Positions 1,008-6,258 of a DNA stretch of 6,258 nt are shown here, piece by piece. Position 1 is the stretch's first letter, and every line of letters starts with the position of its first letter. The translations under genes were made by a program, and so were the position numbers. Under the pieces are notes generated by a model. It did no database searches. It was not told the origin of the DNA and was given only the letters and a program-made list of their open reading frames with translations. The stretch is taken from positions 1-6,258 of IMG/VR virus record IMGVR_UViG_3300008807_000508; one strand, 5' to 3'. The DNA comes from a virus.

Positions 1008-1985
1008 ATGCGTCTGCTCCTCATCCTATGTGTAGCACTGCTCGGCATGTCACTGCCAGGACGCGCGCAGGCGCAGGCTCAGGGGTATCGCTGCACCACT
1101 CCGAACGTGTGCGATGAGGGTGAGGCATACGCTGAGGCCGTTGCGTTTGGCGCTGAGCGGCAGGCCACGCTTCAGGCGCAGGAGCCGGGCGTTAAGTACC
1201 CAATTTGTCTCGAAAAGGCGGCTGGTGCGTTTACTCAACGCGTGTTCCGGTTGGCTTGCGGCAATGGCAGCTCCTCGGCACGCGAAACGTTCTACTACAA
1301 GGGAGCATGCTCAGCCCGCCCGTATGAATTGGGCTGGCAGGGTGGATCAACCTCCGCAACAGTCAATGCCTGCCACAAGGGTTGCATGTATAGCAGCGCG
1401 CTTGATCCAGAAGGGGCGGCAGGATTCGGCTATTGGCCTACTGGCGGCACTTGCACGGAGTCCGACGCCCCTGCGCCTACGCCTGCTGGTGATGGCGGAG
1501 GTGACGATGGTGGCGGCGGCGGCAGTGAAACCGGGGGTGGTGACGGTGACGGCGATGGTGGAGGGAGTGACGGTGGTGGCGATGGGGACGGGGGAGGGGA
1601 CGGCGGTTCCGGTGGTGGTGACGGCGGCGGTGATGGGGATGGAGATGGGGACGGCGATGGTGATGGGGACGGTGATGGCGACGGTGGCCCCGGTGATGGA
1701 GGTGAGAATCCCAGCCTTCCGGGCGATCCGCAGTATCCCGGCGACGTGCCGATGCCCTACATGGATCCACCGATTCCCAGTAGCCCGGATGGTCAGTGGT
1801 CTTCAGGGCTAGGCGGTGGCTCCTGTCCCGCAGCGAAAGTCGTCTCCGTTTCTCTGGCGGGCATGAGTACGTCCGTCAATTTCGAGTTCAAACCCTTGTG
1901 TGACTTCGCATCGCTGCTTCGGCCACTTCTTCTGGCCTGCTCAGCCATCGTCGCGGCATACATCATCGTGGGAGTGCGCAAGTAA
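1008..1985 (+). CDS. gIII-like minor coat / host-adsorption protein (325 aa)
   Basis: Signal peptide MRLLLILCVALLGMSLPGRAQA. N-terminal domain with 8 Cys. 72-aa Gly/Asp linker. C-terminal membrane anchor LLLACSAIVAAYIIVGVRK. Located between coat and gVI, and its TAA overlaps the next ATG (TAATG). Confidence 0.8.
   Translation: MRLLLILCVALLGMSLPGRAQAQAQGYRCTTPNVCDEGEAYAEAVAFGAERQATLQAQEPGVKYPICLEKAAGAFTQRVFRLACGNGSSSARETFYYKGACSARPYELGWQGGSTSATVNACHKGCMYSSALDPEGAAGFGYWPTGGTCTESDAPAPTPAGDGGGDDGGGGGSETGGGDGDGDGGGSDGGGDGDGGGDGGSGGGDGGGDGDGDGDGDGDGDGDGDGGPGDGGENPSLPGDPQYPGDVPMPYMDPPIPSSPDGQWSSGLGGGSCPAAKVVSVSLAGMSTSVNFEFKPLCDFASLLRPLLLACSAIVAAYIIVGVRK
1488..1703 (+). repeat. Coding low-complexity Gly/Asp-rich linker of gIII, including nine consecutive Gly-Asp dipeptides (GGN-GAY x9 at 1629..1682)
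   Basis: Direct reading of codons: ggt gat ggg gat gga gat ggg gac ggc gat ggt gat ggg gac ggt gat ggc gac. Third positions vary between units. Confidence 0.9.
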
Positions 1986-2269: not shown

Positions 2270-3486
2270 TGTATCTGATTTCCGGGCAACCGGGCAATGG
2301 CAAGACCCTGCGCGCCATGTCGATGGCGTTGGAGTTCTACGAGCAGAACCAGCAGCAGGTGAAGGAGGGCAAAGCATCGCCGCGGCGCTTTTTCACGAAC
2401 ATCGCGGGTGCTACGACCGAAGAGAATCCGGAGGCCTTTCCGTGGCTCGAAAAGCTGCCAGAACACAACGACTGGACCCAGCTTCCGGACGGCTCGTTCG
2501 TGCTGTACGACGAAGCCCATTCCGATGGCAATACACAGGGGCTGGAGCGCTATGGGCGGCTGTTCCCATCCACCGGCAAGCCGGGTGAATCGGAAGATCC
2601 GCGTATCCGCTCGATGTCTACGCATCGTCATCGCGGCTTCGATCTGGTGTTTGTGACCCAGTGGCCTAGCAAGATTCACCACCAGGTGCGCAGCCTGATC
2701 GGCTCGCACACCCACATGAATCGTGCTTTTGGCATGCAGCGCGCAGGCGTCCTTACATGGTCGCGCGTACAGGCTGATCCCTACGATGAGCGCGTGCGCG
2801 ACAAGGCCGAGGAAGAAATCTGGGTCTACCCGAAGGCGCTTTACGCCCGATACCGCAGCGCCACGCTGCACACAGCCAGTCACAAGTTCAAGGTGCCCAA
2901 GCGTGTTTGGCAGGGTCTGTCGGTTGCCGTGACCTTGATAGGCGGCCTTTGGCTGATATGGACCTTTGTTGTCAAACCCTCCACCGCTGCACCGCCCAAG
3001 AAGGAGGAGCAGGGGGCCGGTGCTCTGCCGGCGGGAGGTGCCCTGGCGCCCTTGGGCGCGGGCATGCCGGCGGCACGGCCCCTCACTCGGGAAGAGTACG
3101 TGGCGAAGCACAAACCACGTGTCGAGTTTCAACCTTGGTCGGCACCGGCTTTTGATGAGCGTTCCGTGCAATCGCAGCCTGAGCTGTATTGCATGGCATC
3201 CGGTACCACCGAGCTGGACACCACTTGCACGTGTGTAACTGAGCAGGGCACCAAGGCCAGTATCTCCATCCCGGTGTGTGTGGCGATCGCGCGCGATGGC
3301 CCTGCTTACAACCCCTATCGGGCGCCACGGCAGCAGGCGGAGCCGGGCAAGGAGGAGGCTGGCCGGGCCTTGGCACAGTCGCCGCCAGTAGGCTCGCCCG
3401 AGCCGACTGCACATGCACTGATTGAGGTGGGAAAGCGGCCAATGGGCACATTCCCTGAGACGCCGCCTTACCCGGCCAGCTTCTAA
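2266..3486 (+). CDS. gI / Zot-family phage assembly NTPase (406 aa)
   Basis: Walker A GQPGNGKT at aa 7-14. Walker B FVLYDEAH. THRHRGFDLVFVTQ motif typical of Zot/pI. Single TM helix (LSVAVTLIGGLWLIWTFVV), then a Pro/Ala-rich linker and a Cys-containing C-terminal domain. Confidence 0.92.
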   Translation: MMYLISGQPGNGKTLRAMSMALEFYEQNQQQVKEGKASPRRFFTNIAGATTEENPEAFPWLEKLPEHNDWTQLPDGSFVLYDEAHSDGNTQGLERYGRLFPSTGKPGESEDPRIRSMSTHRHRGFDLVFVTQWPSKIHHQVRSLIGSHTHMNRAFGMQRAGVLTWSRVQADPYDERVRDKAEEEIWVYPKALYARYRSATLHTASHKFKVPKRVWQGLSVAVTLIGGLWLIWTFVVKPSTAAPPKKEEQGAGALPAGGALAPLGAGMPAARPLTREEYVAKHKPRVEFQPWSAPAFDERSVQSQPELYCMASGTTELDTTCTCVTEQGTKASISIPVCVAIARDGPAYNPYRAPRQQAEPGKEEAGRALAQSPPVGSPEPTAHALIEVGKRPMGTFPETPPYPASF

Positions 3487-3499
3487 TTATCGTGACGCA

Positions 3500-3643
3500 T
3501 CACGGGCAGGGTTGTCCCGGCACATTCTCCCAACCACCAGGTATACGGCGGAACGTGATTCCGCCGATGCATCTTGTCTCGCTGCGCCGCTGCTGGGCTT
3601 CGCGCTCTGCCTTTTCTCGTCGCGCGCGCACCTCGGCCAGCAT
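3500..3643 (-). CDS. Hypothetical small basic protein (47 aa)
   Basis: ATG (cat at 3641-3643 on +) lies 15 nt after the stop of the upstream - strand ORF. Translation is MLAEVRARREKAEREAQQRRSETRCIGGITFRRIPGGWENVPGQPCP. Alternative frames are also open, so the coding call is weak. Confidence 0.3.
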   Translation of the reverse strand: MLAEVRARREKAEREAQQRRSETRCIGGITFRRIPGGWENVPGQPCP

Positions 3644-3657
3644 TGCTTTCCGGTCCG

Positions 3658-3873
3658 CTATCGTTTCGGGCTGGGGCTGCGATCAACGCTGGTTGACTCG
3701 CTCGGCGCAGGCGCGGCTTGGAAGCGTGCATTCCAAGCGCTGCCGGTCTTCAGATGCAGCCAGATTCCAGCACCGGCCATGCCCAGCAGCAGCACAGCCC
3801 ACAAGGCGAGCCACGGAAACTCCCAGCGAGAGCGTGGGATGGGTTGCAGGTACTCCGGTCGTTCGCGTTCCAT
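3658..3873 (-). CDS. Hypothetical small membrane protein (71 aa)
   Basis: Real ATG (cat at 3871-3873 on +) is preceded by GGGGG on the - strand. The track ORF 3658..3900 was trimmed to this start. Clear TM helix WLALWAVLLLGMAGAGIWLHL after a charged N-terminus. GC3-rich. Confidence 0.5.
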   Translation of the reverse strand: MERERPEYLQPIPRSRWEFPWLALWAVLLLGMAGAGIWLHLKTGSAWNARFQAAPAPSESTSVDRSPSPKR

Positions 3874-3940
3874 ACGGCCCCCAAGGCGTCCTGCGCGCAT
3901 TCTAGCCGGGGTGTAGGGGCAGCGCCCCTACGGAAGCGCC

Positions 3941-4312
3941 TCACACGCGCTGGCGGCGTTTCGGCCCCGTCACCGGCAGGACTGCCGCTGGCGGCTCGGC
4001 GTCGGGGCCAGTCATCACCCTGGACAACCGCTCTTGCCGCCGTGCCATGAGGCTGGCTACCTCGATCACGTCAGCCGGCACTGCAGGAAAGGTGTTTCCG
4101 GCAGCCTTAGTGCTACAACGGTTTCGAGAGCGCCCCGATCGAGCATCGCCGCGAAGTTCACCCATCATGCGGCGCCATTCCTGTGCCTGTGCAGCAGTGA
4201 GCGACAGCCACGCGAGATCCTGCGGTTCCAGCTCGCGGCCTTCGGGGGTGACCAGTCGGCCAGCCTTAAACGAAAAACCGGCCCAAGGGCCGGTTAGGTT
4301 GCGATCACGCAC
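3941..4312 (-). CDS. DUF3653-like phage protein (123 aa from GTG 4312; the longest ORF would start at GTG 4369)
   Basis: The N-terminal NLTGPWAGFSFKAGRLVTPEGRELEPQDLAWL resembles the short conserved DUF3653 motif I recall from Xanthomonadaceae filamentous prophages. GTG at 4312 has a GGAG 7 nt upstream and starts 2 nt after the repressor stop. The 4369 start would overlap the repressor by 55 nt. Confidence 0.6.
   Translation of the reverse strand: MRDRNLTGPWAGFSFKAGRLVTPEGRELEPQDLAWLSLTAAQAQEWRRMMGELRGDARSGRSRNRCSTKAAGNTFPAVPADVIEVASLMARRQERLSRVMTGPDAEPPAAVLPVTGPKRRQRV
4268..4295 (-). terminator. Intrinsic-terminator-like hairpin plus T-tract on the - strand, just downstream of the repressor stop
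   Basis: The - strand reads AACCGGCCC-TT-GGGCCGGTT followed by TTTCGTTT, so with the stem's last two T the tract reads TTTTTCGTTT. Stem 4276-4284 / 4287-4295 is 9 bp and perfect. It lies inside the codons for TGPWAGFSF of the DUF3653-like ORF. Confidence 0.45.
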
Positions 4313-4314
4313 AA

Positions 4315-4767
4315 TCAGGCTCCATGCCACAGCAGGGCCGAGGGTCGAGGCAAGATGCGTGCCAGCCACCCCCGGATCGCCTTGAACATAATATACATAC
4401 CGCCGTTCTCGGTACCGCTAACCGCCTGAATTTGGGCGGTTTTTGTGTTTGCGAGGCCCGGCATGGACAGTGCCACCAGCGCAAACACCGCAGCCGCCGC
4501 GCTGATCCGGTCCAGCATCAAACGCCAAAGGGCCCGCTCGGTCTGAGTCTGCGCACGCTCGGCATGGACCATCGCGATCCATAGCGGGCCATCGAGTTTT
4601 GCCATTGCGCAGATCTGCGCAATTCGCTCATCGGGGATCGGATTTCGAGCCTGTCGCCAGTTCGACACGACTGCGCGAGTCACGCCCATTCGCTGAGCTA
4701 AAGCATTGTCCGAAGGGAGGTTTGCACCGATCCGGGCTTGGTCGAGGAGTTGGTTGACGGCATCCAT
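4315..4767 (-). CDS. HTH phage repressor-like regulator (150 aa) with a hydrophobic C-terminal segment
   Basis: Real ATG (cat at 4765-4767 on +). MDAVNQLLDQARIGANLPSDNALAQRMGVTRAVVSNWRQARNPIPDERIAQICAMAKLD is a Cro/CI-type helix-turn-helix of the DUF3693-like phage regulator pattern. Divergent from the rep operon, as rstR is from rstA in CTXphi. The 309-aa track ORF (to 5244) crosses the promoter region and two + strand genes, so I rejected its N-terminal extension. Confidence 0.75.
   Translation of the reverse strand: MDAVNQLLDQARIGANLPSDNALAQRMGVTRAVVSNWRQARNPIPDERIAQICAMAKLDGPLWIAMVHAERAQTQTERALWRLMLDRISAAAAVFALVALSMPGLANTKTAQIQAVSGTENGGMYIMFKAIRGWLARILPRPSALLWHGA
4381..4408. other. dif-like 28-bp site, candidate XerC/XerD attP
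   Basis: The + strand reads CTTGAACATAA TATACA TACCGCCGTTC. The reverse complement of E. coli dif is ATTTAACATAA TATACA TTATGCGCACC. Matches: 9/11 in the XerD arm, 6/6 in the central region, 4/11 in the XerC arm. It is an AT-rich island in a GC-rich genome. Confidence 0.6.
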
Positions 4768-4780
4768 GTACACGATTCCG

Positions 4781-4809
4781 TTGACAGGGTGTATTCGGGG
4801 AACTATACA
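4781..4809 (+). promoter_or_regulatory. Sigma70-type promoter for the rightward operon (small ORFs, rep, and possibly onward)
   Basis: TTGACA (4781-4786), a 17-nt spacer, then TATACA (4804-4809). It sits in the 132-bp gap between the divergent repressor ATG (4767) and the first rightward ATG (4900). Confidence 0.55.
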
Positions 4810-4817
4810 TCGACCCC

Positions 4818-4835
4818 GTATGCGGGATCGCATAC
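4818..4835. promoter_or_regulatory. Perfect 7-bp inverted repeat GTATGCG-GGAT-CGCATAC; candidate operator or origin element
   Basis: Read directly from the sequence. It lies 9-26 nt downstream of the rightward -10 element and over the expected -35 region of a leftward promoter. Confidence 0.4.
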
Positions 4836-4899
4836 ACCCGCCACCGGCACCCCAAGGCCGCTGGCGGGTTCTCTTGGGGCTTGGGGTAGGGGAACAGGG

Positions 4900-5127
4900 A
4901 TGATTGATCCGCTCATTACCTTCGTGCTGCTGGCGGCCATCGTGGCCGTGTCCATTGGCGGCGCTCGCATCGTTTCGTTGCTGCTCGACCGGCTTGACCG
5001 CACCGCCTCGCAGCGGTCCCGCGAAGCCCAGGTCATCGAACTTGCAAAGGCAGAGATTGCGGCCACGAAGCGCGGCGATCTGCTCGCTGCCGCCGAGCTG
5101 GCCGAAGCACAGGAGCGAGTCGCATGA
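4900..5127 (+). CDS. Hypothetical small membrane protein (75 aa), first gene of the rep operon
   Basis: Real ATG at 4900 with GGGG (4889-4892) upstream. The track ORF 4738..5127 was trimmed to this start. N-terminal TM helix LITFVLLAAIVAVSIGGARIV, then a charged helical tail. High GC3. Its stop overlaps the next start (ATGA). Confidence 0.6.
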   Translation: MIDPLITFVLLAAIVAVSIGGARIVSLLLDRLDRTASQRSREAQVIELAKAEIAATKRGDLLAAAELAEAQERVA

Positions 5128-5300
5128 GCATCCATTCCTTTGCCGTCGAGCTTGCGGAGACCGATATGGGCCTTTTCGCATGCGCGGTGGTGATTGTTGT
5201 CTGCCTCGGCGGCGCAATAGCTTCAATCGTGATTGAGCAGGCATGGCTTGGGATCAGTCGCCTGTGGAAGCTCTGGAAGGGCCGCGCCAATGGTCGGTGA
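5124..5300 (+). CDS. Hypothetical small membrane protein (58 aa)
   Basis: ATG at 5124 with AGGAG (5111-5115) 8 nt upstream. Translation is MSIHSFAVELAETDMGLFACAVVIVVCLGGAIASIVIEQAWLGISRLWKLWKGRANGR, with a central TM helix and a basic tail. It overlaps the rep ATG by 11 nt. Below the track length cutoff. Confidence 0.5.
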   Translation: MSIHSFAVELAETDMGLFACAVVIVVCLGGAIASIVIEQAWLGISRLWKLWKGRANGR

Positions 5301-6258
5301 TCGCGCGGTGCTGGCCGGGTCGGGACTCCCCTCGTCTAACAGGGGAGTCAGTGAATTCAGGAACCCCGAGGGAACCCTGACGGTCGGCATTGACTGGTTT
5401 TCCGCTTCCATCGATCTGCGCGCAGCGCTGGACGAGGTCGCGTTCCGTGATGGCGATAGCTTCGAAGAAGTCCGGCAGTGGATCGAGTTCTCCCCGGAAA
5501 ACGCACGCATTGCGGCCCTGCAAGTGTTCTGCTGGTTTTTCGCCGGGCTGGGTCTTGAACTGGATGAAGCTGCTGGCGGCGGTCGCTTCTACACGTGGCG
5601 AATCAAGATCATCGACGCCGCCAAGAAGTTCGTTGGCATGATCGAGCTGGGTGGCGAGGAGTGCCGTCGCGCGGATGGCACGTACACCGCCCGCATCGAG
5701 CTAACCGGTGATGGCTGCAAGGCAATAGGAGCAGCGCGCTGCGGCCATGCGAAGCGGTGGCTGGAGCTTCGAGCGAAGCTCGAAAGCTGCGCCGGAAGGA
5801 TCACCCGTGTGGATGTTTGCGCCGATGATCTGGTGGGCGACTACCCATTGCGACTGGCGCAGAAGTGGTATTCCGCTGGCGAGTTCGATAACCGTGGTCA
5901 GCGCCCCAAGGCGCAGTTGGTGGACGACTACGACAGCGGCGACGGCAAGACGCTCTATATCGGCGGCAAGAAGTCGGAAAAGCAGCTGCGCGTGTACGAA
6001 AAGGGCAGGGAGCAGGGCGACAAGAATTCACCGTGGGTCCGCTACGAAGCGCAGTTCCGCAACTCCAACCGCAAGGAACTGCCGCTCGACATTCTGCGTG
6101 ATCCGGCCTCCTACCTGCTGGGCGCCTATCCAGTCCTGTCCTTTCTGCGCTGCGTTGCCACGCGTATCGAGATCACGAAAGCCGCTGTTGAAGCGACCTG
6201 GAAAAGCGTTCGTCGCCACATCCGGCGCCAGTACGGCGCGGCCCTCAATTTCATCGCC
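5290..6258 (+). CDS. Rolling-circle replication initiation protein, Rep_trans / RstA-like. This is the N-terminal and central part; the ORF runs off the window end and continues at 1..237 (368 aa in total on the circle).
   Basis: Frame 1 is open from the stop at 5230-5232. ATG at 5290 is preceded by GGAAGG. Translation contains GIDWFSASIDL near the N-terminus, ITRVDVCADD (5800-5829) and LYIGGKKSEKQLRVYEKG (5953-6006, Tyr codon 5995-5997). These resemble the Rep_trans motifs of pT181 RepC and CTXphi RstA. The ORF is absent from the supplied track because it has no stop inside the window. Confidence 0.85.
   Translation, partial: MVGDRAVLAGSGLPSSNRGVSEFRNPEGTLTVGIDWFSASIDLRAALDEVAFRDGDSFEEVRQWIEFSPENARIAALQVFCWFFAGLGLELDEAAGGGRFYTWRIKIIDAAKKFVGMIELGGEECRRADGTYTARIELTGDGCKAIGAARCGHAKRWLELRAKLESCAGRITRVDVCADDLVGDYPLRLAQKWYSAGEFDNRGQRPKAQLVDDYDSGDGKTLYIGGKKSEKQLRVYEKGREQGDKNSPWVRYEAQFRNSNRKELPLDILRDPASYLLGAYPVLSFLRCVATRIEITKAAVEATWKSVRRHIRRQYGAALNFIA
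5324..5349. promoter_or_regulatory. Perfect 9-bp inverted repeat GACTCCCCT-(8 nt)-AGGGGAGTC inside the 5' end of rep
   Basis: Read directly: arms at 5324-5332 and 5341-5349, loop CGTCTAAC. Candidate plus-strand origin hairpin or translational control element. Confidence 0.4.
6160..6258. repeat. Terminal redundancy (copy 2), identical to 1..99
   Basis: Same as copy 1. The overlap lies inside the rep coding sequence. Confidence 0.95.

Follow-up and report, generated by a model that had tools for sequence, protein, structure and literature searches.

A dif-like half-site within the regulator gene of an inovirus related to phiSHP2 is its probable attachment site for integration at host dif

Introduction

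The filamentous phages CTXphi and VGJphi integrate at dif by means of the host Xer enzymes; the dif site of Escherichia coli is GGTGCGCATAATGTATATTATGTTAAAT. CTXphi recombines through two inverted sites folded in single-stranded DNA. In the attP of VGJphi the XerC arm is good, and homology to dif does not extend beyond the XerC side of the centre. TLCphi of Vibrio cholerae uses a double-stranded attP in which the XerD arm is crippled, and it encodes beside this site the protein XafT, a fusion of HTH and DUF3653 domains (PMC6744903). The DUF3653 domain was proposed to be the part of XafT that activates XerD; this activation is independent of FtsK, and DUF3653 genes cluster at dif (PMC6744903).

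The phages XacF1, Cf1c, phiLf, PSH1 and SMA9 integrate at dif without an integrase of their own, and their attP lies in the 3' part of a regulator gene. It contains the core TATACATTATGCGAA, with an XerC arm that matches at 10-11/11 positions and an XerD side that matches at 2-3/11. In XacF1, PSH1 and SMA9 the site reads ATTTCGCATAA-TGTATA followed by a degenerate XerD side (here and below, hyphens separate the XerC arm, the central hexamer and the XerD arm), and ORF12 of XacF1 is split upon integration (PMC5666396). The Xanthomonas dif itself is ATTTCGCATAA-TGTATA-TTATGTCAGGA (PMC2731167). The mirror-image arrangement is found in the Xanthomonas phage Cf2, whose attP, TGCGTATAGTC-TGTATA-TTATGTCAAAG, is degenerate on the XerC side and perfect in the centre and the inner part of the XerD arm. 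In the Cf2 record this attP is annotated within a minus-strand HTH gene, towards its 3' end, and a DUF3653-like gene lies downstream; a study of this phage carries 'XerD-dependent integration' in its title (Yeh 2020, Virology 548:160; title as cited in bioRxiv 10.1101/2023.12.30.573655).

Among phages of Stenotrophomonas maltophilia, phiSMA7 (Petrova et al. 2014, Arch Virol 159:1293) has the attP CAACGGCGGTA-TGTATA-TTATGTTCAAA. The 'proviral' record of this phage begins at the site and has ORF150 spanning its two ends, and the title of the phiSMA7 paper mentions integrative properties (as cited in PMC8228603). In phiSMA7, phiSMA6 and phiSHP2 (Liu et al. 2012) the regulator gene is followed by a DUF3653 gene. 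phiSHP2 was described as an episomal replicative form (PMC8228603), and phiSHP2-like prophages are common in S. maltophilia (PMC10746704). A half-site within a regulator gene is thus an already known design, given the phiSMA7 record cut at the site, the annotated attP of Cf2 and the split ORF12 of XacF1.

Here we describe such a site in a 6,258-nt stretch of viral DNA (the window) and compare it with its relatives in phage genomes, prophages and empty host dif sites.

Results

Genome organization

Positions 1-99 of the window are identical to positions 6160-6258. This terminal repeat shows that the genome is complete and circular, with a length of 6159 bp. It belongs to an inovirus whose closest known phage is phiSHP2 of Stenotrophomonas (84.7% identity across 83% of the length). 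The similarity drops at the linker of the pIII-like gene (window 1480-1700, plus strand), a long low-complexity stretch rich in Gly and Asp (GDGDGD...). The rightward genes encode Rep_trans, an ssDNA-binding protein, coat B, the pIII-like protein, DUF2523 and Zot. The leftward unit and a hairpin within it are as follows.

4315..4767, minus strand: regulator ('repressor') gene, 150 aa, with an N-terminal HTH, DUF3693 and a hydrophobic segment
3941..4312, minus strand: gene of a DUF3653 protein, 123 aa (Pfam DUF3653, E=4e-9)
3500..3900, minus strand: two small leftward ORFs, of 80 aa (with a membrane-like helix) and 47 aa
4420..4450, plus strand: terminator-like hairpin AACCGCC-TGAATTT-GGGCGGTT with a T run, 12 nt from the dif-like site, antisense within the regulator gene

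The regulator matches Pfam DUF3693 with E=1e-8 and the HTH, CI and Cro families weakly; its homologues include ORF150 of phiSHP2, ORF150 of phiSMA7 ('putative regulator') and ORF12 of XacF1. The DUF3653 gene starts with GTG 2 nt past the regulator stop codon. Its product is 47% identical to PSB15 of phiLf-UK (tblastn, phiLf-UK 5034-5309), a protein that binds the packaging signal and whose loss left integration unchanged (bioRxiv 10.1101/2024.03.19.585677). When the Protein Data Bank was searched by sequence, the regulator matched only Cro, weakly, and the DUF3653 protein matched nothing. In Pfam scans, none of the main ORFs of the complete genome showed an integrase, resolvase or recombinase domain.

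A consensus scan of positions 3400-5000 found no sigma-70-like promoter, and it neither found nor excluded internal promoters. The hairpin at 4420-4450 is the sole plus-strand terminator-like site that a scan found downstream of zot. It is kept in close relatives, and distant relatives have other stems; in a prophage it would sit just inside attR, toward the host flank. On the minus strand, positions 4276-4295 hold a perfect palindrome, CCGGCCC-TTG-GGCCGG, followed by T's, which was flagged as terminator-like on the coding strand and encodes the conserved TGPWAGF motif of DUF3653.

The 80-aa and 47-aa ORFs correspond to a single 133-aa ORF (4170..4571) in the related genome L007, and the interrupted copy in the window reflects either a real frameshift or a sequencing error. 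L007, a complete genome from this phage group, is the whole 6425-nt contig NZ_JACRST010000048.1 of an assembly that bears the label Ligaoa zhengdingensis. That species is an unlikely host for this phage group, and contamination is the likely source.

A dif-like site in the regulator gene

The site lies near the 3' end of the regulator gene and has the following parts.

4381..4408, minus strand: attP, 28-bp dif-like site GAACGGCGGTA-TGTATA-TTATGTTCAAG (plus strand CTTGAACATAATATACATACCGCCGTTC)
4381..4391, minus strand: predicted XerD-binding arm TTATGTTCAAG, 8-10/11 against host dif arms
4392..4397, minus strand: central hexamer TGTATA, presumed strand-exchange zone, 6/6 against every host dif examined
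4398..4408, minus strand: degenerate XerC-side arm GAACGGCGGTA, 3/11 against the host XerC arm

Compared with E. coli dif, the XerC arm scores 4/11, the centre 6/6 and the XerD arm 9/11, which reproduces exactly the values of an earlier sequence-only reading of this DNA. That reading had also placed the site in the 3' coding region of the regulator, about 25 codons before its stop, and this holds: the site takes in codons M124-K129 (MYIMFK), and between F128 and the stop there are 22 codons. Against the empty dif sites of Stenotrophomonas-like hosts, the XerD arm matches at 8-10/11 positions and the contiguous run of identity is 14-17 nt long. The centre and the inner 7-8 bases of the XerD arm are identical between attP and host dif, as one would expect from the earlier suggestion that the host dif matches these two parts. 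The phage arm also tracks the host. The arm of Cf2 (TTATGTC) resembles Xanthomonas dif and not Stenotrophomonas dif, and the Stenotrophomonas phages have TTATGTT.

A site this short, situated inside a coding sequence, might resemble dif by chance or as a by-product of coding for MYIMF. The 14-mer TGTATATTATGTTC occurs once in the window at up to one mismatch and in none of 200 dinucleotide-preserving shuffles; it is AT-rich, in a genome of 62% G+C. For the 13-mer core at up to two mismatches the chance expectation is 0.01. No second dif-like site is present in the whole genome, and a folded attP of the CTX kind was rejected on this ground.

Conservation among relatives gives a further view of the same question. 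The 28-mer is identical in phiSHP2. Across loci collected by protein similarity the core TGTATATTATGTT does not vary, despite regulator identities between 43% and 97%; the left (XerC-side) arm does, falling into a GGTA class and a CATTC class. Moreover, two reading frames are in use across the 13-14 nt core, which is translated as MYIMF in the window, phiSHP2 and phiSMA7 and as (S)VYYV in phiSMA6, L007, L026 and L052. In phiSMA6, which shares its gene order with the window and differs from it in this frame, a 1-nt length difference downstream of the core restores the conserved tail GWLAR..LWHGA. Since the core is conserved in two reading frames, the constraint acts on the DNA. A pure coding origin is ruled out by the two-frame core, and the junction data given below dispose of chance and coding alike, so that we regard this explanation as having practically no probability left. 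In sequence, attP is a deliberate half-site, with an XerC-side arm that would not serve as an XerC site.

Prophage junctions at the site

Relatives were gathered by a scan of IMG/VR for the core and by protein-guided scans, and these yielded many loci rich in G+C. The point at which about 30 related prophages cease to resemble the window is exactly the dif-like site: homology ends at position 4398 in about 23 loci and begins at 4379-4384 in about 10. In nine loci (L014, L017, L024, L028, L045, L053, L056, L057 and L058) both attL and attR were found, 5.0-7.5 kb apart. In many loci attL consists of the host ATTTCGCATAA-TGTATA joined to the phage XerD arm TTATGTTCAAG, beyond which lie the regulator tail and then the DUF3653 gene. 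At the other end, attR consists of the degenerate phage arm GAACGGCGGTA or a variant of it, then TGTATA and the XerD arm of the host, TTATGTTC with TAG, TAA, CAA, AAA or TCA after it. The locus L017 is 85% identical to the window and colinear with it, and cutting the window open at the central hexamer gives the map of L017. The XerD arms of attL and attR end differently, which bounds the crossover by the XerC arm on one side and position 8 of the XerD arm on the other. Comparison of the two junctions thus shows an exchange in or beside the central hexamer and a prophage that corresponds to the circle opened at 4392-4397.

The same junctions occur in sequenced bacterial genomes. A sequence identical to the window's ssDNA-binding protein is encoded in many NCBI genomes, and of ten loci fetched, four (L185, L186, L190 and L191) have this junction type. 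The prophage in L191 is situated at 50.7% of a 5.0-Mb chromosome. In one example of these junctions, in record LT906480.1 at 2.53 Mb of 5.00 Mb, attR is CTGACCCATTC-TGTATA-TTATGTTACAA and attL is ATTTCGCATAA-TGTATA-TTATGTTCTGC. From one side of the element to the other, GC skew changes sign in L186 and L190, as it does across a type-1 prophage (a prophage of the XerC-arm kind, see below) in L188; the change is weak in L185 and absent in L191, and we count it only as supporting evidence. Exact-protein look-ups with Zot and the regulator gave no match, the ssDNA-binding protein being the only one to yield genome loci. The regulator-guided scan of genome contigs gave two loci, one of them a complex array and not a clean insertion. 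No integrated copy of the exact window phage was found in these searches; the closest is 85% identical.

In agreement with the earlier proposal, these junctions lie at host dif and not, for example, at a tRNA gene. They also bear on a more modest function. Plasmid Xer sites such as cer and psi resolve multimers, and the replicative form in which phiSHP2 was isolated is plasmid-like (PMC8228603), so the site could serve solely to resolve multimers of the replicative form, or it could be a passive scar of a past excision. Dozens of integrated relatives with junctions exactly at the site, together with a core conserved across two reading frames, speak against both versions, and a site without an XerC arm would make a poor resolution site. 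We consider either version highly improbable.

Directly beyond the XerC arm of attL, L017 contains two large tyrosine-recombinase-like ORFs in an AT-richer stretch (7254-10047), which may be another island lodged at dif. In L006, about 600 bp homologous to window 3485-3995 are situated between attR and a host GNAT gene (10388-11000); this segment has no DUF3653 gene and, by its sequence, looks like the remnant of an older type-2 prophage (the XerD-arm kind).

Host dif sites

Host dif was sampled by a metagenome scan for TTCGCATAATGTATATTATGTTC, which yielded 120 contigs. In contigs without inovirus genes the empty dif reads ATTTCGCATAATGTATATTATGTTC, followed by TAG, TAA, CAA or AAA. The XerD-side flanks of empty sites are 99% identical to flanks outside prophage attR (L148 with L056, and L084 with L017). 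Pairs of empty and occupied sites with both flanks in common were sought, and only the XerD-side flanks matched (99%); the XerC side of dif is usually taken by a type-1 prophage or another island. One such type-1 prophage, in CP076403.1, adjoins the host XerD arm TTATGTTACAA.

Sequence on both sides of dif was available in 92 of the metagenomic contigs. A DUF3653 gene is present on the XerC side only in 23 of them, on the XerD side only in 21, on both sides in 3 and on neither in 45. In the metagenomic sample, such a phage therefore occupies 47 of 92 dif sites with this type of sequence, about half.

Fate of the regulator and the leftward genes

Opening of the circle at the central hexamer separates the end of the regulator gene from its body.

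4318..4383, minus strand: regulator tail K129-A150 (KAIRGWLARILPRPSALLWHGA), cut off from the gene body by integration

The tail peptide is conserved in episomal forms. Prophage regulators end in MYIMF* where the host arm ends with TAG or TAA (L017, L045, L058 and L082); elsewhere they end in MYIMFKAD* or read into host sequence. For the window regulator, the predicted prophage forms have 128, 128, 131, 148 or 179 aa, compared with 150 aa in the circle. The replacement of the C-terminus by host-encoded sequence, foreseen in the sequence-only reading, is thus seen in the integrated relatives, in some of them as a host stop codon. For the window phage, integration would accordingly be predicted from these loci to remove the last 22 residues of the regulator, often through a stop codon in the host arm.

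The integrated relatives likewise bear out the expected transfer of the leftward genes, the DUF3653 gene and the small ORFs, to the opposite prophage end. The tail, the DUF3653 gene and the small ORFs adjoin attL, the small ORFs being colinear with its proximal part. In 27/27 cases the DUF3653 gene lies next to attL and is oriented away from dif, and integrated DUF3653 genes oriented in this way have no gene upstream (27/27 and 30/30). On this evidence, the DUF3653 gene and the small leftward genes of the window would be shifted to the attL end, away from the regulator's promoter.

Two mirror-image site types

The sequence-only reading had stated that the attP core of Xanthomonas phages comprises the centre and the XerC arm, the opposite of the pattern seen here. 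This proved correct for XacF1, Cf1c and phiLf (bioRxiv 10.1101/2023.12.30.573655), and the core of these phages is absent from the window. In the position of attP within the homologous regulator gene and in the lack of an integrase the window resembles XacF1, Cf1c, phiLf, PSH1 and SMA9, but it has the mirror half-site. Cf2 shares with the window the type of half-site and the gene order around it, but its regulator is only 33% identical. Whichever the site type (type 1 with the XerC arm, type 2 with the XerD arm), the good arm is the one towards DUF3653.

The two types meet in arrays. In L006 (S. maltophilia Sm46PAILV), L022 and L032, a type-1 prophage occupies the XerC side and a type-2 prophage the XerD side of a single complete dif (2695-2722 in L006). 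This dif takes its XerC arm from the type-1 phage and its XerD arm from the type-2 phage, and the two DUF3653 genes diverge from it. In the loci L183-L192 the backbone from Rep to Zot is 80-90% identical to the window, with an ssDNA-binding protein 100% identical, and is combined with either an XerC-arm or an XerD-arm module. Since the same backbone occurs with either att module, the integration module has been exchanged between phages.

TLCphi, like the window phage, has a double-stranded attP with one crippled arm and a DUF3653 protein encoded beside it. However, the crippled arm is the XerD arm in TLCphi and the XerC arm in the window, and XafT is a fusion, whereas the window has two ORFs. 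Three related lineages have the domain pair of XafT: their regulator (HTH/DUF3693) and DUF3653 form one polypeptide through an in-frame fusion, and the att core lies in the linker between DUF3693 and DUF3653.

L007, 3323-4129: fused HTH/DUF3693 and DUF3653 gene, 268 aa
L052, near 1550: fused HTH/DUF3693 and DUF3653 gene
L026, 5730-6314: fused HTH/DUF3693 and DUF3653 gene

CTXphi and VGJphi are, like the window phage, filamentous. The single site of the window contrasts with the two folded sites of CTXphi, and its arms and centre contrast with the good XerC arm and one-sided homology of VGJphi.

Proposed mechanism of integration

The phage has no recombinase of its own and carries a dif-like site, and its relatives are integrated at dif between hybrid sites. 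The site is therefore very probably the attP of an integrase-less filamentous phage (IMEX) that recombines with host dif through the host enzymes XerC and XerD. We infer the dependence on XerC and XerD from the absence of an integrase in the genome and from the use of dif as the target.

By analogy with established Xer biology (PMC4246890, PMC6744903), XerD would bind the phage arm and recruit XerC cooperatively to the poor arm. The first strand exchange would probably be made by XerD, as suggested by the title of the Cf2 study and by the missing XerC arm. With the whole centre identical to dif, both strand exchanges could finish. XerD could be activated either by FtsK or by a phage factor.

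In the integrated relatives attL is the only complete dif remaining in the chromosome, and the phage arm would serve as its XerD arm. The good arm may be conserved because the lysogen needs it for chromosome dimer resolution. The bad arm may be kept bad because attL and attR would otherwise form two working dif sites, from which FtsK-XerCD would excise the prophage at cell division. A degenerate arm that prevents FtsK-driven excision has a precedent in the gonococcal island (PMC6744903).

An alternative order of events is that of VGJphi, in which XerC alone catalyses exchange and the Holliday junction is resolved by replication. This is the FtsK-independent Xer default for the double-stranded, replicative-form attP of VGJphi (reviewed in PMC4246890), and XerC could act from the dif partner. 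However, the XerC-side arm of the window matches at only 3/11 positions and is freely variable among relatives, and it is the XerD arm that is conserved. The entire central hexamer, not just its XerC side, is identical to dif. The same type of site in Cf2 is called XerD-dependent in the title of the study cited above. We therefore regard the route of VGJphi as improbable for this phage and favour a first exchange by XerD.

Discussion

The sequence-only reading had proposed that the leftward unit, contiguous only in the circle, might act as a sensor of the integration state. This idea can be extended to a switch: the full regulator and, from the same promoter, the DUF3653 protein would be made by the circular form alone. 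This DUF3653 protein could be an XafT-like activator of XerD, a binder of the packaging signal, or both. Once integrated, the phage would cease to activate Xer and to assemble virions, and both activities would return upon excision or in tandem copies.

Several observations are consistent with such a switch. The gap of 2 nt between the regulator stop and the DUF3653 start suggests co-expression, and the integrated DUF3653 genes all face away from dif with no gene upstream (27/27, 30/30). The three fused lineages encode the domain pair of XafT, of which the DUF3653 domain is the proposed XerD activator (PMC6744903), and integration would cut the fused gene in two. The XacF1 prophage was destabilised when the 5' part of ORF12 was deleted (PMC5666396), and host arms ending with TAG or TAA give a clean truncated regulator of 128 aa. 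On the other hand, PSB15 binds the packaging signal and its loss had no effect on integration (bioRxiv 10.1101/2024.03.19.585677), although phiLf-UK is a type-1 phage. The gene-internal position of att may also just reflect the little space in a 6-kb genome. We hold the switch as a tentative idea that is rather unlikely to be right, and we give a real regulatory role of the operon split about the same low probability, or slightly less.

We speculate further, with a little less expectation still, that the att core lies in the linker of a two-part XafT-like module, made of coupled but separate ORFs in the window and of one fused protein in L007, L052 and L026. Integration would dismantle this module and only the circular or tandem form would make it, so that Xer activation, excision and packaging would all be governed by the topology of the genome. 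At the same time, each of two phage classes with mirror-image sites would donate one arm of the working dif of the host.

For the genome in the window, the finding repeats what phiSMA7, Cf2 and XacF1 document. It shows a route by which a phage lysogenises Stenotrophomonas, an opportunistic pathogen, and the only working dif of the lysogen would then be partly phage DNA. Sites of this class, which exploit Xer recombination without an XerC arm, are little studied and could help to explain how XerD is activated away from FtsK.
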